Below are positions 1 to 5,196 of a DNA stretch of 5,196 nucleotides, piece after piece. This DNA is from Escherichia coli. Lineage in GTDB: Bacteria > Pseudomonadota > Gammaproteobacteria > Enterobacterales > Enterobacteriaceae. Both the position numbers and the translations under genes were made by a program. The notes under the pieces are model-generated. The model saw nothing but the letters and a program-made list of their open reading frames with translations, was not told the origin of the DNA and searched no databases. Every line of letters starts with the position of its first letter. Within the stretch, counting starts at the first letter, position 1. Location of the stretch: NCBI RefSeq assembly GCF_003334335.1, contig NZ_QOWQ01000077.1; one strand, given 5' to 3'.

Positions 1-167
1 AAGCGTGTCTGGATGCTGTTCTGGAGTTCTTCTGCGAGTTCGTGCAGCTTCTCACACATGGTAGCCTGTTCGTCAGCATCGAGGGCGTCCAGCTTTTCGA
101 GCAGCGTCAGGCTTTGGCTTTTTATGAATCCTGCCATGTTGAGTACGGCTTGCTGCTGCTTGTTCAT
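1..167 (-). CDS. rom: Rom/Rop (RNA one modulator), 5-prime portion; the gene wraps the window boundary of the circular plasmid (start codon at 167, stop at 5092..5094)
   Basis: Reverse-complement translation from ATG (complement of 165..167) gives MNKQQQAVLNMAGFIKSQSLTLLEKLDALDADEQATMCEKLHELAEELQNSIQTR..., continuing across the junction to ...FEVENSTER* (64 aa). This matches the recalled ColE1/pBR322 Rop (63 aa; ...ALNMARFIRSQTLTLLEKLNELDADEQADICESLHDHADELY...). An in-frame stop lies 14 codons upstream of the ATG and a GGAG lies 11 nt upstream. Confidence 0.85.
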   Translation of the reverse strand, partial: MNKQQQAVLNMAGFIKSQSLTLLEKLDALDADEQATMCEKLHELAEELQNSIQTR

Positions 168-204
168 CTTTTCGTTTTCTCCGTTCTGTCTGTCATCTGC
201 GTTG

Positions 205-245
205 TGTGATTATATCGCGTACCACTTTTCGACTGTTTTACCGCC
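205..245 (-). promoter_or_regulatory. Putative rom promoter
   Basis: A perfect TATAAT on the - strand (complement of 209..214) lies about 45 nt upstream of the rom start. The -35 element is weak (AACAGT-like). Position is consistent with a rom promoter but is untested. Confidence 0.35.
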
Positions 246-299
246 GGTATTCTGCCGTCTGACGCTTTGACGGGTATTTCTGCCTGACAATACTGTCAC

Positions 300-420
300 T
301 GCCAAAAAACTGCCGTGCCTTTGTCGGTAATTCGAACTTGCTGACAGGACAGGATGTGTAATTGTTATACCGCGCATACATGCACGCTATTACAATTACC
401 CTGGTCAGGGCTTTGCCCCG
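300..420. other. bom/oriT-like region (basis of mobility)
   Basis: Lies between rom and the mbeC-like gene as in ColE1/pBR322. The segment gggctttgccccgacaccc (401..419) resembles the recalled pBR322 bom sequence ggctgcgccccgacacccgcc. An imperfect inverted repeat lies adjacent (358..399). The nic position is not determined. Confidence 0.5.
358..399. repeat. Imperfect inverted repeat (12-bp arms, 11/12 match, 18-bp spacer) within the oriT-like region
   Basis: Left arm gtaattgttata (358..369); right arm tattacaattac (388..399), whose reverse complement is gtaattgtaata. Read directly from the sequence. Confidence 0.6.
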
Positions 421-426
421 ACACCC

Positions 427-774
427 ATGTCAGATACGGAGCCATGTTTTATGACAAAACGAAGTGGAAGTAATACGCGCAGGCGGGCTATCAGTCGCCC
501 TGTTCGTCTGACGGCAGAAGAAGACCAGGAAATCAGAAAAAGGGCTGCTGAATGCGGCAAGACCGTTTCCGGTTTTTTACGGGCGGCAGCTCTCGGTAAG
601 AAAGTTAACTCACTGACTGATGATCGGGTACTGAAAGAAGTTATGAGACTGGGGGCGTTACAGAAAAAACTCTTTATCGACGGCAAGCGTGTCGGGGACA
701 GGGAGTATGCGGAGGTGCTGATCGCTATTACGGAGTATCACCGTGCCCTGTTATCCAGGCTTATGGCAGATTAG
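427..774 (+). CDS. MbeC/MobC-like mobilization accessory protein (ribbon-helix-helix nicking accessory factor)
   Basis: ORF of 115 aa immediately downstream of the bom/oriT-like sequence. The N-terminal region has the pattern RPVRLTAEEDQEIRKRAAECGKTVSGFLRAAAL, typical of RHH mobilization accessory proteins. A more likely start is the in-frame ATG at 451 (107 aa), which has GGAG at 438..441, 9 nt upstream. The C-terminal half does not show the motif I expect for the relaxase-interacting domain, so the family assignment is tentative. Confidence 0.6.
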   Translation: MSDTEPCFMTKRSGSNTRRRAISRPVRLTAEEDQEIRKRAAECGKTVSGFLRAAALGKKVNSLTDDRVLKEVMRLGALQKKLFIDGKRVGDREYAEVLIAITEYHRALLSRLMAD

Positions 775-848
775 CTTCCCGGAGAGAAAACTGTCGAAAA
801 CTGACGGTATGAACACCGTAAGCTCCCAAAGTGATCACCATTCGCTTT

Positions 849-866
849 CATGCATAGCTATGCAGC
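849..866. promoter_or_regulatory. Putative ArgR (ARG box) site within the cer accessory region
   Basis: Palindrome tgcatagctatgca (851..864) fits the TGnAT...ATnCA ARG-box half-site symmetry and sits about 110 bp upstream of the crossover core, where ArgR binds in ColE1 cer. Confidence 0.45.
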
Positions 867-964
867 GAGCTGAAAACGATCCTGACGCATCCTTCCTGTT
901 TTTCCGGGGTAAAACATCTCTTTTTGCGGTGTCTGCGTCAGAATCGCGTTCAGCGCGTTTCAGT

Positions 965-994
965 GGTGCGTACAATTAAGGGATTATGGTAAAT
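965..994. other. XerC/XerD recombination core site of cer
   Basis: ggtgcgtacaa (965..975), ttaaggga (976..983), ttatggtaaat (984..994), read directly. Confidence 0.85.
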
Positions 995-997
995 CCC

Positions 998-1426
998 TTA
1001 CTGTCTGCCCTCGTATCCATCGAGATAAACCGCAGAAATGGTGTCTGCCATTAGTTTCATTTTTTTCGGCGAAGGCATATCGCTGTTTGTGTATTTTCTG
1101 CCAGCAAAGGTTGTTGTGCTCCGGAGTGAGTGAAAAAATTTTTCTGAGTGGAATTCTTTTACACGTTGCTGTGCCGTTTCTGCTGATACTCCGGCTGCTT
1201 TGTCTTTCATCCCCATATCCCGGAACTGCTGAAAGAACGGGAGCATCATACGTATGGTGTCTGCTTTCTGGGTGTAGAAGTTAGGATCAAATCCATCATC
1301 TGAAGCATAAACATAATGCCGGGTATGTCGTTCCAGGCTGGTCTTTGGTGTGCATCCTGTAAGAGCTATTGTTGCTGTTATCAGAGGTATCAGAAGCAGC
1401 CTGGCAGCGGCAGATCTCATAAACAT
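998..1426 (-). CDS. Hypothetical lipoprotein (142 aa), function unknown
   Basis: The N-terminus MFMRSAAARLLLIPLITATIALTGC has a positively charged n-region, a hydrophobic core and an LTGC lipobox, indicating a signal peptidase II substrate. The mature part is hydrophilic. I recognise no family. The stop codon lies 3 bp from the cer XerD arm. Confidence 0.6.
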   Translation of the reverse strand: MFMRSAAARLLLIPLITATIALTGCTPKTSLERHTRHYVYASDDGFDPNFYTQKADTIRMMLPFFQQFRDMGMKDKAAGVSAETAQQRVKEFHSEKFFHSLRSTTTFAGRKYTNSDMPSPKKMKLMADTISAVYLDGYEGRQ

Positions 1427-1541: not shown

Positions 1542-1820
1542 GTGAAAAAATGTGTGCCAGTCCTGCTTTTTAGTGTTCTTTCTGCTTCGGTTGCCAGTCA
1601 TGCGGACAGCAATGTTTTTCAACAAAAGGCCGAGAAGACAAAAAACGGCATTGTTGCGGATGTTAATGCCAGACAGAAAATGTTCAGTAACAGACTGAAG
1701 ATACAACTTCAGATCGATGAGTTGAGAGCAGAGCTGGCTGGCACCAGAGATGCCCAAAAAAGAGAGGATTTGCGTAAAAAACTGGAGTCTCTGGAGCGGC
1801 AAAAGAAATCCTTACGCTGA
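1542..1820 (+). CDS. Hypothetical secreted or periplasmic small protein (92 aa), charged and probably helical
   Basis: GTG start with AGGA about 7 nt upstream. Signal peptide MKKCVPVLLFSVLSASVASHA with an AxA-like cleavage site (SHA|D). The mature ~71 aa are K/E/R/Q-rich with heptad-like spacing (QLQIDELRAELAGTRDAQKREDLRKKLESLERQKK). Divergently arranged with the lipoprotein gene across a 115-bp intergenic region. Confidence 0.5.
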   Translation: MKKCVPVLLFSVLSASVASHADSNVFQQKAEKTKNGIVADVNARQKMFSNRLKIQLQIDELRAELAGTRDAQKREDLRKKLESLERQKKSLR

Positions 1821-2129
1821 TGGGGGCGTATTTTCCCCGGTTTCTTCCATAACCTTTTTACCGTTCAGATATTTACGGGCGAGGCGAATGCGTCTTGCCT
1901 GGTATACCGCCGAGTAAGCCTGGGTGGGATTCACACCATTACTGATTTCACTGACCACATGACGCTGATCTGCCAGTGTCAGCGTGTAAACCTGTTTCTG
2001 GATGAGGTCACGGGCTTTGTCATGCTCATATCCGGCAGCAACAAGGGTGTCGAGAAGTCGTTTGTCTGTTTTGTTCAGTTTATGGCGGGGTGATTTGCTC
2101 ACATCGTTCTCCGTTTTTTCATGATCCAA
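1812..2129 (-). CDS. Hypothetical basic protein (105 aa), putative DNA-binding (HTH-like)
   Basis: ORF convergent with the 1542..1820 gene (9-bp overlap) and divergent from the colicin promoter. The segment DKRLLDTLVAAGYEHDKARDLIQ looks like a helix-turn-helix. An alternative start is GTG at 2102, preceded by GGAG. No family recognised. Confidence 0.45.
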   Translation of the reverse strand: MDHEKTENDVSKSPRHKLNKTDKRLLDTLVAAGYEHDKARDLIQKQVYTLTLADQRHVVSEISNGVNPTQAYSAVYQARRIRLARKYLNGKKVMEETGENTPPSA

Positions 2130-2346: not shown

Positions 2347-3819
2347 ATGGATAAAGTCACTGATAATTCTCCAGATGTGGAGAGCACAGAATCTACTGAG
2401 GGGTCATTCCCAACTGTTGGGGTTGATACTGGCGATACGATTACAGCGACGCTTGCAACTGGAACTGAAAATGTTGGTGGAGGCGGTGGAGCATTTGGTG
2501 GGGCCAGTGAAAGTTCTGCTGCGATACATGCAACCGCTAAATGGTCTACCGCGCAGTTGAAAAAACATCAGGCTGAACAGGCTGCCCGTGCTGCTGCGGC
2601 TGAGGCAGCATTGGCAAAAGCGAAATCTCAGCGTGATGCCCTGACTCAACGTCTCAAGGATATTGTTAATGACGCTTTACGTGCTAATGCCGCTCGTAGT
2701 CCATCAGTAACTGACCTTGCTCATGCCAATAATATGGCAATGCAGGCAGAGGCTGAGCGTTTGCGCCTTGCGAAGGCAGAGCAAAAAGCCCGTGAAGAAG
2801 CTGAAGCAGCAGAAAAAGCGCTCCGGGAAGCAGAACGCCAACGTGATGAGATTGCCCGCCAACAGGCTGAAACCGCGCATTTGTTAGCAATGGCGGAGGC
2901 AGCAGAGGCTGAGAAAAATCGACAGGATTCTCTTGATGAAGAGCATCGGGCTGTGGAAGTGGCAGAGAAGAAGCTGGCTGAGGCTAAAGCTGAACTGGCG
3001 AAGGCCGAAAGCGATGTACAGAGTAAGCAAGCGATTGTTTCCAGAGTTGCAGGGGAGCTTGAAAACGCTCAAAAAAGTGTTGATGTGAAGGTTACTGGAT
3101 TTCCTGGATGGCGTGATGTTCAGAAAAAACTGGAGAGACAATTGCAGGATAAGAAGAATGAATATTCGTCAGTGACGAATGCTCTTAATTCTGCGGTTAG
3201 CATTAGAGATGCTAAAAAAACAGATGTTCAGAATGCTGAGATAAAATTAAAAGAAGCTAAGGATGCTCTTGAGAAGAGTCAGGTAAAAGACTCTGTTGAT
3301 ACTATGGTTGGGTTTTATCAATATATAACCGAACAATATGGGGAAAAATATTCCAGAATAGCTCAGGATTTAGCTGAAAAGGCGAAGGGTAGTAAATTTA
3401 GTAGTGTTGATGAAGCTCTTGCTGCATTTGAAAAGTATAAAAATGTACTGGATAAGAAAATCAGTAAGGTTGATCGGGATGCTATTTTTAATGCGTTAGA
3501 GTCTGTTAATTATGATGAGTTATCTAAGAATTTAACGAAGATATCAAAGTCGCTTAAAATCACTAGTCGAGTATCTTTTCTATATGATGTTGGTTCTGAT
3601 TTTAAAAATGCAATAGAAACTGGTAACTGGCGACCTTTGTTTGTCACGCTGGAGAAAAGTGCGGTCGATGTAGGTGTGGCAAAAATTGTGGCATTAATGT
3701 TTAGTTTTATTGTTGGTGTGCCTCTTGGTTTCTGGGGGATTGCAATTGTCACAGGTATTGTTTCTTCTTACATAGGGGATGATGAGTTGAACAAACTTAA
3801 TGAGTTGTTAGGGATTTAA
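2347..3819 (+). CDS. cta: Pore-forming colicin, colicin E1 family (490 aa); best recalled match is colicin 10
   Basis: AGAGGA lies 9 nt upstream of the ATG. Residues ~55-130 ([29 protein letters not shown]...[16 protein letters not shown]...[31 protein letters not shown]) and the C-terminal channel domain (YGEKYS...[28 protein letters not shown]...LKIT..VSF.YDV.SD...TG.W.PLF.TLEK.A.D.GV...VAL.FS...[15 protein letters not shown]....LN..NE.LGI) closely parallel the recalled colicin E1 sequence. The N-terminal ~50 aa and the central region differ. The 490-aa length, the 96-aa immunity protein and the 43-aa lysis protein fit my recollection of colicin 10, but colicin 5 or a close relative cannot be excluded without a search. 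Confidence 0.85.
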
Positions 3820-4135: not shown

Positions 4136-4267
4136 ATGAAAATAATAATTTTTCTAATTACAATATTATTCTTGTCAGGATGTCAAGCAAACTATATTCG
4201 TGATGTGCAAGGAGGAACCGTTGCACCATCTTCGTCTTCTGAACTGACGGGGATCGCGGTTCAGTAG
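4136..4267 (+). CDS. ctl: Colicin lysis (release) lipoprotein, 43 aa
   Basis: Not in the supplied ORF track (too short). Hand translation gives [43 protein letters not shown], with GGAAAG 5-10 nt upstream of the ATG. Signal peptide plus LSGC lipobox and a short mature peptide are typical of colicin lysis proteins. It sits downstream of the immunity gene on the colicin strand, as kil does in ColE1. Confidence 0.8.
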
Positions 4268-4321: not shown

Positions 4322-4429
4322 TGTAAACGAAAAAACCGCCTGGGGAGGCGGTTTAGTCGAAGGTTAAGTCAGTTGGGGACTGCTTAACCGGGTAACTGGC
4401 TTTAGTGGAGCACAGATACCAAATGCTGT
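4322..4429 (-). ncRNA. RNA I antisense copy-number control RNA (about 108 nt)
   Basis: The 5-prime end ACAGCAUUUGGUAUCUGUGCUCC... is the complement of 4429 downward and is homologous to the pMB1 RNA I start ACAGUAUUUGGUAUCUGCGCUCUG. The 3-prime end is the hairpin plus U-run complementary to aaaaaaccgcctggggaggcggttt at 4327..4351. Confidence 0.75.
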
Positions 4430-4865
4430 CCTTCCAGTGTAGCCGCTATAAGGCTTCAACTTCAAGAGTTCTGCGTATCTAAATCCACTATCCAGTTACC
4501 AATGGCTGCTGCCAGTGGCGTTAAGTCGTGTCTTACCGGGTTGGACTCAAGACGATAGTTACCGGATAAGGCGCAGCGGTCGGGCTGAACGGGGGGTTCG
4601 TGCACACAGCCCAGCTTGGAGCGAACGACCTACACCGAACTGAGATACCAACAGCGTGAGCTATGAGAAAGCGCCACGCTTCCCGAAGGGAGAAAGGCGG
4701 ACAGGTATCCGGTAAGCGGCAGGGTCGGAACAGGAGAGCGCACGAGGGAGCTTCCGGGGGGAAACGCCTGGTATCTTTATAGTCCTGTCGGGTTTCGCCA
4801 CCTCTGGCTTGAGCGTCGATTTTTGTGATGCTCGTCAGGGGGGCGGAGCCTATGGAAAAACGCCT
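4323..4865 (+). ncRNA. RNA II pre-primer of the ColE1-type origin
   Basis: Starts at gtaaacgaaaaaacc..., homologous to the pMB1 RNA II start gcaaacaaaaaaacc.... The 5-prime ~110 nt are diverged from pMB1, then the sequence is near-identical to pBR322/pUC from about 4500 onward (ccagtggctgctgccagtggcg.taagtcgtgtcttaccgggttggactcaagacgatagttaccggataaggcgcagcggtcgggctgaacggggggttcgtgcacacagcccagcttggagcgaacgacctacaccgaactgagatacc...). The 3-prime end is approximate. Confidence 0.8.
4437..4465 (-). promoter_or_regulatory. RNA I promoter
   Basis: On the - strand: -35 TTGAAG (complement of 4460..4465), 17-bp spacer, -10 CTACAC (complement of 4437..4442), 7 nt before the RNA I start. Same architecture as the recalled pMB1 RNA I promoter. 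Confidence 0.6.
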
Positions 4866-4870
4866 GCGGC
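4850..4870 (+). other. Origin of replication (RNA II to DNA transition point, oriV)
   Basis: ggcggagcctatggaaaaacgcc is identical to the pBR322 sequence surrounding the mapped leading-strand start. The downstream 4900..5036 (tcacatgttctttcc...gcggaagagcgcc) is near-identical to the pBR322 region carrying the primosome assembly site. Confidence 0.7.
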
Positions 4871-5091
4871 GCGGGCTTCTTCCGGTGCTTTGCTTTTTGC
4901 TCACATGTTCTTTCCGGCTTTATCCCCTGATTCTGTGGATAACCGTATTACTGCTTTTGAGTGAGCTGACACCGCTCGCCGCAGTCGAACGTCCGAGCGT
5001 AGCGAGTCAGTGAGCGAGGAAGCGGAAGAGCGCCTTATGTGACATTTTCTCCTTACGCTCTGTTGTGCCGTTCGGCATCCTGTCCTGAGCG

Positions 5092-5196
5092 TTATCTCTC
5101 TGTGCTATTTTCTACTTCAAAGCGTGTCTGGATGCTGTTCTGGAGTTCTTCTGCGAGTTCGTGCAGCTTCTCACACATGGTAGCCTGTTCGTCAGC
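5092..5196 (-). CDS. rom: Rom/Rop, 3-prime portion (stop at 5092..5094); continues as feature 1..167 across the circular junction
   Basis: Same reading frame as feature 1..167; reverse-complement translation ends ...QTRFEVENSTER*. Positions 5120..5196 duplicate 1..77. Confidence 0.85.
   Translation of the reverse strand, partial: ADEQATMCEKLHELAEELQNSIQTRFEVENSTER
5120..5196. repeat. Terminal 77-bp exact duplicate of window positions 1..77 (circular-plasmid linearisation overlap, not a biological repeat)
   Basis: aagcgtgtctggatgctgttctggagttcttctgcgagttcgtgcagcttctcacacatggtagcctgttcgtcagc occurs at 1..77 and 5120..5196. Implied unit length is 5,119 bp. Confidence 0.9.

Follow-up and report, generated by a model that had tools for sequence, protein, structure and literature searches.

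The segment 347-994 of the plasmid analysed here is most likely the standard mobilization and resolution module of the NTP16 group, a reading to which we give a probability of about 0.87. According to this reading, the segment combines an oriT derived from the I-complex, its own NikA and a cer-type site, carries no relaxase, and works with the NikB of a helper plasmid. The discovery value is small, because the module, its missing relaxase and its dependence on an IncI-type helper were described in 2017, and plasmids with identical NikA have been tested. The group is also known as the pCERC7 family. As far as Moran & Hall 2017 (Plasmid) is relayed in PMC9282650, its members share the same NikA and a conserved oriT and have no NikB. 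The window (the whole stretch of 5,196 nucleotides that was analysed) carries the NikA of the group, a conserved R64-related oriT directly upstream of nikA and no relaxase. A multimer-resolution site lies downstream of nikA, and the variable cargo begins there. The rop-oriT-nikA-cer block, the lack of a relaxase and the variable cargo are common to NTP16, pU302S, pCRP3, pAnkS (NC_010896) and pCERC7, whereas the window differs from them in that its cargo is a colicin operon with exc2 and most of its ori comes from a ColE1-type colicin plasmid.

The plasmid and its missing relaxase

The window represents a circle of 5,119 bp, in which an overlap of 77 bp was read twice (1-77 = 5120-5196). Two E. 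coli plasmids, CP125069.1 and NZ_CP049851.1, are 99.9% identical to it over the whole length; coordinates in CP125069.1 are those of the window with an offset of +2142. The replicon is of the ColE1 type with RNA priming, as the Rfam RNAI model matched 4327-4427 on the minus strand with 77.4 bits (gathering score 47), and the ori is 87% identical to that of ColE1. The colicin operon is of colicin 5/K type according to the annotation. For two neighbouring ORFs without known function (1542-1820 and 1812-2129), Pfam gave nothing significant. A promoter scan of 150-1050 was uninformative, returning a single weak site (267-294) where shuffled sequences gave as much. The features of the segment and its surroundings are as follows.

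1-167, continuing at 5093-5119 across the circle junction, minus strand: rop (Rom), flanking the module; a Rop family protein is annotated at CP125069.1 2115-2309
1-994, unstranded: main part of the block attributed to import from the NTP16 group (5' part of rop, oriT, nikA, left arm and core of cer); pCRP3 838-1831, 99.9%, 1 mismatch in 994
347-358, plus strand: left conserved block GGACAGGATGTG, invariant across five aligned I-complex-type oriTs
358-377, plus strand: left arm (20 nt) of the inverted repeat, 85% complementary to 380-399 with a 2-nt loop (repeat search)
380-399, plus strand: right arm of the inverted repeat and presumed NikA-binding site, by homology to 'repeat A' of R64
401-426, plus strand: conserved nick region CTGGTCAGGGCTTTGCCCCGACACCC, presumed NikB target; includes an 8-bp inverted repeat, 404-411/415-422
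438-441, plus strand: Shine-Dalgarno sequence GGAG of nikA, aligning with the GGAG before the R64 nikA start
451-774, plus strand: nikA (annotated as mobA), encoding a 107-aa RHH relaxosome accessory protein, by PF21983, NF041264 and homology to R64 NikA
775-964, unstranded: putative accessory (left) arm of a cer-like multimer-resolution site of NTP16-group type, 100% identical to pCRP3
965-994, plus strand: 30-bp XerC/XerD core of cer, GGTGCGTACAATTAAGGGATTATGGTAAAT, identical to the ColE1 cer core; probable crossover point of the mosaic
4807-5196, unstranded: remainder of the block (3' end of the ColE1-type ori, 3' end of rop), from informative sites

The plasmid contains neither a relaxase gene nor a remnant of one. 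MbeA and MbeB of a 6,822-bp sibling plasmid (NZ_CP010159) and NikB of R64 gave no tblastn match at E<=10 on the doubled circle; the search with MbeA had been suggested in the initial annotation. The MbeD and MobC proteins of the sibling matched the doubled circle at chance level only (E of 2.1 and 1.1, respectively), and the MbeD match falls inside the colicin gene. Apart from the colicin gene, the longest stop-free frame is of 147 codons. A hidden or frameshifted relaxase was thus rejected, since neither the tblastn searches (including the 541-aa MbeA) nor the frame scan gave a candidate. Given its gene content, this plasmid can transfer only if a relaxase is provided in trans, as had been proposed. 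The earlier description of an oriT with one RHH accessory gene and no relaxase was likewise confirmed by Pfam, NCBIfam and PDB matches together with the searches above, and so was the cer region directly after the stop at 774.

The origin of transfer and NikA

The window oriT aligned with the R64 oriT just upstream of nikA, and the comparison indicates that 347-426 is an oriT of IncI1 (R64) type, derived from the I-complex, and not the bom of ColE1. Of the earlier label 'bom/oriT-like', the oriT part holds. The bom part does not, as the nic context TAAGCCAGTATA, found at ColE1 1462 and at 3119 of the sibling, is absent from the window and from pCRP3, and the ColE1 bom region was without BLAST match in the window. 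For the oriT alignment, five sequences were used, namely the window, pU302S, R64, an IncK2/Z plasmid and pE17EC0076-2, a second plasmid with the type IncI1/B/O. Every base of the nick region but one is invariant in these five oriTs (the nick coordinate itself is approximate). The inverted repeat varies among them while the flanking block and the nick region stay nearly invariant. In addition, the right arm, ACGCTATTACAATT(A/G)C, equals the nick-proximal arm of the 17-bp repeat of R64 except for one base.

The repeat 358-377/380-399 folds as a DNA hairpin with a predicted energy of -15.4 kcal/mol (z=-3.2), which was equalled in 0 of 200 shuffles. Compensatory changes were found at 8 of the 20 repeat pairs across the five oriTs, with 86% of the cells paired as compared to 23-44% in slid controls. 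The repeat and the nick region lie 2 bp closer together in the window than in R64, where, as Furuya and Komano reportedly described in 1997, the precise location of the NikA site is required. Sequence-specific binding of NikA at the right (nick-proximal) arm, with bending of the DNA, is presumed from homology and from the covariation of the repeat. In previous work, the 17-bp repeats were described as part of the NikA binding site and as differing between plasmids together with their NikA, and the 8-bp repeats as identical in R64 and in the IncI-type plasmids pO26-CRL125 and pO111-CRL115 (PMC3817090).

The maximal ORF of the accessory gene extends over 427-774 on the plus strand (115 aa), and the annotation of the depositors starts at the in-frame ATG at 451 (107 aa). 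We have taken 451-774 as the gene because this ATG sits 9 nt past the GGAG and gives an N-terminal length that matches R64 NikA. The protein matched the Pfam family NikA-like PF21983 (E=5e-18), the NCBIfam family MobA NF041264 (112.7 bits, cut-off 80) and the NikA RHH domain in PDB 2BA3 (E=2e-5). It is 53% identical to R64 NikA (54 of 102 residues, E=4e-38) and 52% identical to NikA of the co-resident IncK2/Z plasmid. It is identical to pU302S NikA at 107 of 107 residues (WP_000166966.1, also encoded by pCRP3), and NTP16 NikA shows a one-residue deletion relative to it. An N-terminal RHH domain is present, and the oriT next to the gene contains both an inverted repeat and a nick region of I-complex type. 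With cer following nikA and no match for NikB, the locus falls short of a full nikAB module, although its protein belongs to the NikA family.

The initial annotation described a 115-aa MbeC-like RHH gene. The reading frame and the RHH assignment were verified, and the likeness to MbeC failed: PF05713 was not detected at E<=10, no BLASTP alignment to ColE1 MobC was obtained at E<=100, and the alignment with the sibling MobC (9 of 26 identities, E=0.012, BLASTP) is marginal. At family level the protein thus lies outside MobC/MbeC, a result that the initial annotation itself had set against its reading; both are families of RHH accessory proteins.

The order of conserved block, inverted repeat, nick region, Shine-Dalgarno sequence and nikA is that of the oriT-nikA-nikB region of R64 (IncI1), and the nick regions are near-identical. 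In contrast to R64, the window has no nikB, its repeat is of 20 nt instead of 17 nt with other bases, and the module sits on a 5-kb ColE1-type replicon. The oriT is the most conserved non-coding stretch within the block. At 340-430, only 1 of 91 nt differs from pU302S, as compared to 10 of 160 and 23 of 188 in the flanks (6-12%), and nikA differs from that of pU302S by 11 synonymous and 0 non-synonymous changes. This pattern of apparent selection on nikA and oriT supports a working module.

Helper plasmids and alternative explanations

The mechanism we propose is as follows. NikA, an RHH protein, would bind the nick-proximal arm of its own inverted repeat (380-399). The bound NikA would then recruit or position NikB, the relaxase of an I-complex conjugative plasmid in the same cell (an IncI1 plasmid, and probably IncK/B/O/Z plasmids as well). 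NikB would recognise and nick the region 401-426, in which I-complex plasmids hardly differ, and the strand would be exported by the coupling protein and the I-type T4SS of the helper. The small plasmid would keep nikA because the repeat and NikA co-vary by lineage, so that the NikA of the helper need not fit the repeat, while nikB would be dispensable because the nick region is common to the complex. This may explain why an accessory gene is kept without a relaxase. NikA is less conserved than NikB when R64 is compared with the IncK2/Z plasmid (59% against 72% identity). Against the explanation, NikA is only 52-53% identical to that of any helper, the oriT is at most about 87% identical to that of any conjugative plasmid, the spacer in R64 is the longer one, and the authors of PMC9282650 consider that a better helper may exist.

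Published helpers agree with this mechanism. NTP16 is mobilised by R64, according to Moran & Hall 2017 as cited in PMC9282650. The plasmid pU302S is mobilised by IncI1 plasmids and not by IncX1 or IncX4 (PMC8623487); it was not mobilised by IncP, and F did so only at about 1e-6 (PMC9282650). The ColE1-type relaxase that the initial annotation had named as helper is therefore the wrong one, as the published helpers are IncI1 plasmids. In both natural hosts of the identical plasmid, an IncK2/Z plasmid of the I-complex, pKFS-B24_1 or pEcoUTI1f, is co-resident; it is conjugative and of MOBP/MPF_I type, and we infer that it may be used as a helper. As the two hosts have several plasmids in common and are possibly related, the co-residence with IncK2/Z does not amount to two independent observations. 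One of the two also has an IncF conjugative plasmid. A relaxase in trans is also needed by oriT-only plasmids (pOriT), such as pBR322 with its bom and pEC156; the window module differs from them in keeping an accessory gene, so that 'oriT only' does not strictly describe it. The oriT of pEC156, which is of ColE1 type, resembles that of R64, and R64 mobilises this plasmid (PMC4743918; PMC10123127).

The segment is present in 434 plasmid records, nearly all of 1.6-10 kb. Among the 72,556 plasmids of PLSDB, NikA was found at at least 95% identity in 380 records, and full-length matches on conjugative plasmids reached at most 55% (tblastn). The oriT was found at at least 95% identity over 335-432 in 375 plasmid records, and the best oriT of a conjugative plasmid was at most about 87% identical (blastn, PLSDB). 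Neither PLSDB nor a search of 5.8 billion proteins yielded a conjugative plasmid whose NikA or oriT is closer; in the latter, NikA intermediates at 64-67% identity were on small contigs only.

A different view of the same protein is that NikA of the small plasmids serves as a dedicated 'adaptor' for hijacking, which through one private site recruits the NikBs of I1, K2/Z and B/O plasmids, and to a weak extent those of other systems, whatever the specificity of the helper's own NikA, while Xer recombination at the core of cer moves the whole cassette from one ColE1-like backbone to another. This is possible but, in our opinion, rather unlikely. It draws on the invariance of the NikA protein across hundreds of small plasmids and on the lack of any conjugative counterpart above about 55% in the 72,556 records. 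If it were true, NikA would be the determinant of helper range and not a leftover.

The same identity gap bears on a second possibility, that the module is functional and its natural helper lies outside the I-complex, either in an unsampled conjugative family with closer NikA and NikB or among F-type plasmids. No conjugative plasmid fills the gap from at least 95% to at most 55%. Low-level F-dependent transfer of pU302S, the IncF plasmid in one host and the suggestion of the PMC9282650 authors that a better, unidentified helper may exist would also fit. Against this stand the single-base variation of the nick region in the I-complex, the mobilization of pU302S and NTP16 by IncI1, the I-complex plasmid in both hosts and the failure of PLSDB to yield a closer system, and we regard such a helper as improbable.

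Less probable again is that the NikA-like protein has been kept mainly as an RHH transcriptional regulator, either of itself or of neighbouring genes, beside an oriT that is a non-functional relic. RHH proteins are often transcriptional repressors, the RefSeq record of the protein has the GO term 'regulation of DNA-templated transcription', and the protein gave weak matches to the TraJ, TacA and antitoxin RHH families. A relic, however, would not account for the conservation of the oriT relative to its flanks or the covariation of the repeat; IncI1 helpers mobilise plasmids whose NikA is identical, and the block has no other gene to regulate. Regulation may be an extra role of NikA, but it is not needed to explain the conservation of the gene.

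Mosaic origin of the segment

Under the preferred reading of an NTP16-group module, its presence on this backbone is explained by recombination. The sibling NZ_CP010159 is a ColE1-type colicin plasmid with bom, MobC, a 541-aa relaxase ORF, MbeB and MbeD. The window equals pCRP3 through 994 and equals the sibling from 995 on, with different cargo from there. Over 180-994 it matches pCRP3 at 100% of the positions, and its identity to pU302S, NTP16 and pAnkS is 93-94%. At the other end, informative sites before 4807 were of sibling type in 91 cases and of pCRP3 type in 0, and between 4807 and 5063 of pCRP3 type in 35 and of sibling type in 1, which places the ori crossover between 4756 and 4807. 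Judged from these alignments, a pCRP3-like block of about 1.3 kb (3' ori, rop, oriT, nikA, left arm of cer) has replaced a sibling-type bom-rop-mobC-mbeA/B/D block, the crossovers having fallen within the 30-bp XerCD core of cer at one end and within the conserved ori at the other. In the same line, the oriT_pCERC7 within the ColE1-like PTU-E1 has been attributed to recombinational exchange of oriT (PMC10123127).

The window, ColE1, the sibling and pCRP3 have one and the same 30-bp core. It is thus of ColE1 type, whereas the NTP16/pU302S variant differs at 9 of 32 positions. Over 188 positions, the left arm differs at 23 from pU302S and at 19 from NTP16, and the accessory arm of ColE1 cer showed no BLAST similarity to it beyond about 25 nt next to the core. 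In cer-type sites an accessory arm of about 190 bp, associated with ArgR and PepA, lies upstream of the core, and a function of 775-964 in resolution is suggested by its position and by a literature title.

The view that a ColE1 mobilization region (bom, mbeC, mbeA/B/D) has eroded to bom and mbeC and needs a ColE1-type MbeA in trans may be dismissed, being already refuted at sequence level: although the nearest whole-plasmid relatives outside the segment carry bom-mobC-mbeA/B/D and oriT-only plasmids of ColE1-like PTUs commonly arise by deletion (PMC10123127), ColE1 has no similarity to the window at 152-942 (blastn, word size 7), its MobC does not align, its nic motif is absent, no remnants of mbeA or mbeB were found beside the chance-level mbeD match, and the block follows pCRP3 at 99.9% identity between sharply marked switch points. 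The alignment with ColE1 consequently gave no deletion endpoints, and what had been called a reduced module appears to be an import from the NTP16 group. The ColE1 gene order assumed in that account, with a MobC-family gene followed by a relaxase region containing MbeB and MbeD, agrees with the RefSeq ColE1 record. Both the window module and the mobilization region of ColE1 and the sibling lie between rop and cer, begin with an RHH-type accessory gene of about 107 aa and have Exc2 kept beside cer. The two differ in that their sequences are unrelated, the ColE1 oriT lies on the other side of rop, and the window has neither relaxase nor nested genes.

The plasmid may serve as a clean illustration of the way in which helper dependence shifts in small plasmids when an oriT and accessory-gene cassette is swapped, here with a crossover in the XerCD core. 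Among the records consulted, NC_006816 is pU302L. The label 'relaxase MOBF' is given by MOB-suite/PLSDB to these relaxase-less plasmids, a database pitfall by which they would be misclassified in mobility surveys.

A NikA-type gene and an I-complex-type oriT

The plasmid is a circle of 5,119 bp, and a repeat search showed that the ends of the window overlap by 77 bp (1-77 repeats 5120-5196). Because the circle was linearised with this overlap, rop is split in the window and was missing from the ORF list. Over its full length it is 99.9% identical to the E. coli plasmids pKFS-B24_5 (CP125069.1) and pEcoUTI1a (NZ_CP049851.1).

Features of the plasmid (window positions)
across the circle junction: rop (annotation)
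347-426 (+): oriT
451-774 (+): nikA
965-994: XerCD core of a cer-type site
998-1426 (-): Exc2-family entry-exclusion lipoprotein gene (179.5 bits)
1542-1820 (+): small ORF between exc2 and the colicin gene, 92 aa, signal-peptide-like N-terminus
1812-2129 (-): small ORF between exc2 and the colicin gene, 105 aa
2268-2298: palindrome CTGTACATAAAACCA/TGGTTATATGTACAG (15/15 nt), upstream of the colicin gene
2347-3819 (+): pore-forming colicin, 490 aa
3816-4106 (-): colicin K-type immunity gene, convergent to the colicin gene
4136-4267 (+): colicin lysis gene
4327-4427 (-): RNAI of the ColE1-type replicon
4462-4605 (-): 47-aa ORF inside the RNAII/ori region, 'replication initiation protein' in deposited records

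The two small ORFs had no significant match in Pfam or NCBIfam; they are conserved and labelled hypothetical across all relatives. The palindrome resembles the overlapping LexA boxes common at colicin operons, and the colicin, judged by its size and the K-type immunity gene, may be colicin 5. Since a ColE1-type replicon does not require a Rep protein, the 47-aa ORF is probably an annotation artefact.

The oriT-like site with a single ribbon-helix-helix accessory gene, as proposed in the initial annotation, was borne out: ORF 427-774 is real, and an inverted repeat lies upstream of it. In the deposited annotation, nikA starts at the in-frame ATG 451 and encodes 107 aa; this ATG follows GGAG (438-441) at a distance of 9 nt, and in Shine-Dalgarno position as well as N-terminal length the gene agrees with nikA of the IncI1 conjugative plasmid R64. 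The product is a ribbon-helix-helix relaxosome accessory protein. It matched Pfam NikA-like PF21983 (E=5e-18), NCBIfam 'MobA' NF041264 (112.7 bits, cut-off 80) and the N-terminal RHH domain structure determined for R64 NikA (PDB 2BA3, E=2e-5). The protein had been taken as MbeC-like, but BLASTP against the MobC-family protein of ColE1 returned no alignment with the threshold relaxed to E<=100, and against the closest colicin plasmid's MobC it matched at only 9 of 26 residues (E=0.012). It is 53% identical to R64 NikA over 102 residues (E=4e-38), 52% to NikA of an IncK2/Z plasmid, and identical to that of pU302S; by sequence similarity, we assign it to the NikA family.

Similarly, the site is not the ColE1 bom that had been supposed. 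The nic context TAAGCCAGTATA, which ColE1 shares with the 6,822-bp sibling colicin plasmid NZ_CP010159, was not found in the window, and 347-426 aligns with the R64 oriT directly upstream of nikA, with the spacer between repeat and nick region 2 bp shorter than in R64. The 20-nt inverted repeat (arms 358-377/380-399), folded as single-stranded DNA, was more stable than 200/200 shuffles (z=-3.2). Five oriTs were aligned, that of the window with those of pU302S, R64, an IncK2/Z plasmid and one further I-complex plasmid. Two stretches were essentially invariant, GGACAGGATGTG at 347-358 and, at 401-426, the nick region CTGGTCAGGGCTT(T/C)GCCCCGACACCC; the repeat between them varied by lineage. The repeat changes were compensatory: both partners had changed in 8/20 pairs, and 86% of cells were paired, versus 23-44% when the partner was slid by 1-3 columns. 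A C-C mismatch (window 370/387, alignment columns 48/65) was kept in all five oriTs, and such a conserved asymmetry might single out the arm that serves as the NikA site.

The plasmid has no relaxase gene, as first proposed. On the doubled circle, tblastn with ColE1-type MbeA, MbeB and R64 NikB gave no match at E<=10, MbeD gave a chance-level match only, inside the colicin gene, and no stop-free frame other than the colicin gene exceeded 147 codons.

Exchange of the mobilization block

The cer-type site expected after the nikA stop (774) was present, and its 30-bp core at 965-994 is identical to that of ColE1; NTP16 and pU302S carry a different core variant (9/32 positions differ). Across window 1-994, identity to pCRP3 of Citrobacter rodentium is 99.9%; across 180-994, pU302S, NTP16 and pAnkS match at 93-94%. 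The remainder of the circle shares 99% identity with the 6.8-kb colicin plasmid family (e.g. NZ_CP010159), whose members have the full ColE1-type set: a bom that includes the nic motif, together with rop, MobC, MbeB, MbeD and a relaxase ORF of 541 aa. Three-way alignments of the window, pCRP3 and the sibling placed one switch inside the XerCD core, where the window equals pCRP3 through 994 and the sibling from 995 on, and the other in the conserved ori between 4756 and 4807 (informative sites before 4807: 91 sibling-type, 0 pCRP3-type; after: 35 pCRP3-type, 1 sibling-type). These switch points indicate that a block of ~1.3 kb (3' ori, rop, oriT, nikA and the cer left arm) was swapped in for the bom-rop-mobC-mbeA/B/D block of ~2.7-3 kb.

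The crossover within the core is what would be expected if Xer recombination had joined cer sites of two heterologous plasmids; homologous recombination, acting in the stretch where the cores are identical, might instead have produced it. Reduction of a ColE1 mob region by deletion, as originally proposed, is ruled out by the pCRP3/NTP16-group identity and the sibling mosaic with its mapped switches, and comparison with ColE1 found no similarity over 152-942.

By its sequence the locus is placed in the NTP16/pCERC7 group, and it differs both from the complete nikAB module of R64 and from the ColE1 MobC/bom module. As summarised in PMC9282650, Moran & Hall (Plasmid 2017) described small plasmids with a common NikA and oriT and without NikB, in which variable segments adjoin the multimer-resolution site. 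Ares-Arroyo et al. ascribed a ColE1-like PTU-E1 subgroup with oriT_pCERC7 to recombinational oriT exchange (PMC10123127). The finding is therefore not new, and databases already contain the plasmid; it offers a clear case of such exchange with the crossovers mapped.

Exc2 genes usually accompany ColE1-type mob genes; here exc2 still adjoins cer despite their loss, and ColE1 exc1 is not annotated.

Mobilization, distribution and hosts

Mobilization in trans, as had been anticipated, agrees with published work on relatives, but the reported mobilisers are R64 and IncI1 plasmids and not the ColE1-type helper first suggested. R64 mobilised NTP16, as also stated in PMC9282650, and pU302S, with its identical NikA, was mobilised by two IncI1 plasmids and not by IncX1 or IncX4 (PMC8623487). 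IncP likewise failed to mobilise pU302S, and F did so at a frequency of only ~1e-6 (PMC9282650). In I-complex plasmids, 17-bp repeats form part of the NikA site and vary together with NikA, and the 8-bp repeats of the nick region remain identical (PMC3817090). Our measured repeat covariation agrees with this pattern, as does the faster divergence of NikA (59% identity between R64 and IncK2/Z) than of NikB (72%). Taken together, these most likely point to a mechanism in which the private repeat would be bound by the plasmid's own NikA, the shared nick region would be recognised and nicked by the NikB of a co-resident helper, and the strand would be exported via the helper coupling protein and I-type T4SS; beyond family membership, we infer these steps for the present plasmid.

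The 781-bp segment 180-960 occurred in 434 PLSDB records, nearly all plasmids of 1.6-10 kb. NikA was at least 95% identical in 380 records, and full-length matches on conjugative I-complex plasmids reached <=55%; oriT was at least 95% identical in 375 records, followed by IncI-type plasmids at <=87%. Intermediates of NikA (64-67%), from a collection of 5.8 billion proteins, likewise lay on small contigs. Relative to pU302S, 11 nikA codons differ and 11/11 are synonymous, and oriT (340-430) differs at 1/91 positions, with 10/160 and 23/188 in the flanks. Because random substitutions mostly alter the amino acid, this suggests purifying selection on both nikA and oriT.

PLSDB (MOB-suite typing) lists CP125069.1, NZ_CP049851.1, NC_003114.1, NC_006815.1, NC_002090.1 and NC_010896.1 as 'mobilizable; relaxase MOBF', yet they are relaxase-less. 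The label presumably arises from a NikA-like 'MobA' in the relaxase reference set, and mobility surveys that rely on it would place the whole group in the wrong class.

Each of the two strains in which this very plasmid occurs naturally also has a conjugative IncK2/Z plasmid, with MOBP/MPF_I as its type; the complete sequence of the one in KFS-B24 contains nikA and a 903-aa relaxase. The hosts, KFS-B24 (CP125065-CP125069; Uganda faecal sludge) and UPEC-245U/190328 (NZ_CP049846-NZ_CP049851; Mexico bladder biopsy), have in common the 5,119-bp plasmid, the IncK2/Z plasmid and a 5,631-bp ColE1-like plasmid typed MOBP, whose KFS-B24 copy has a MobC gene. This sharing suggests co-travelling sets or related strains, and because other plasmids are also shared, the two strains are perhaps not independent.
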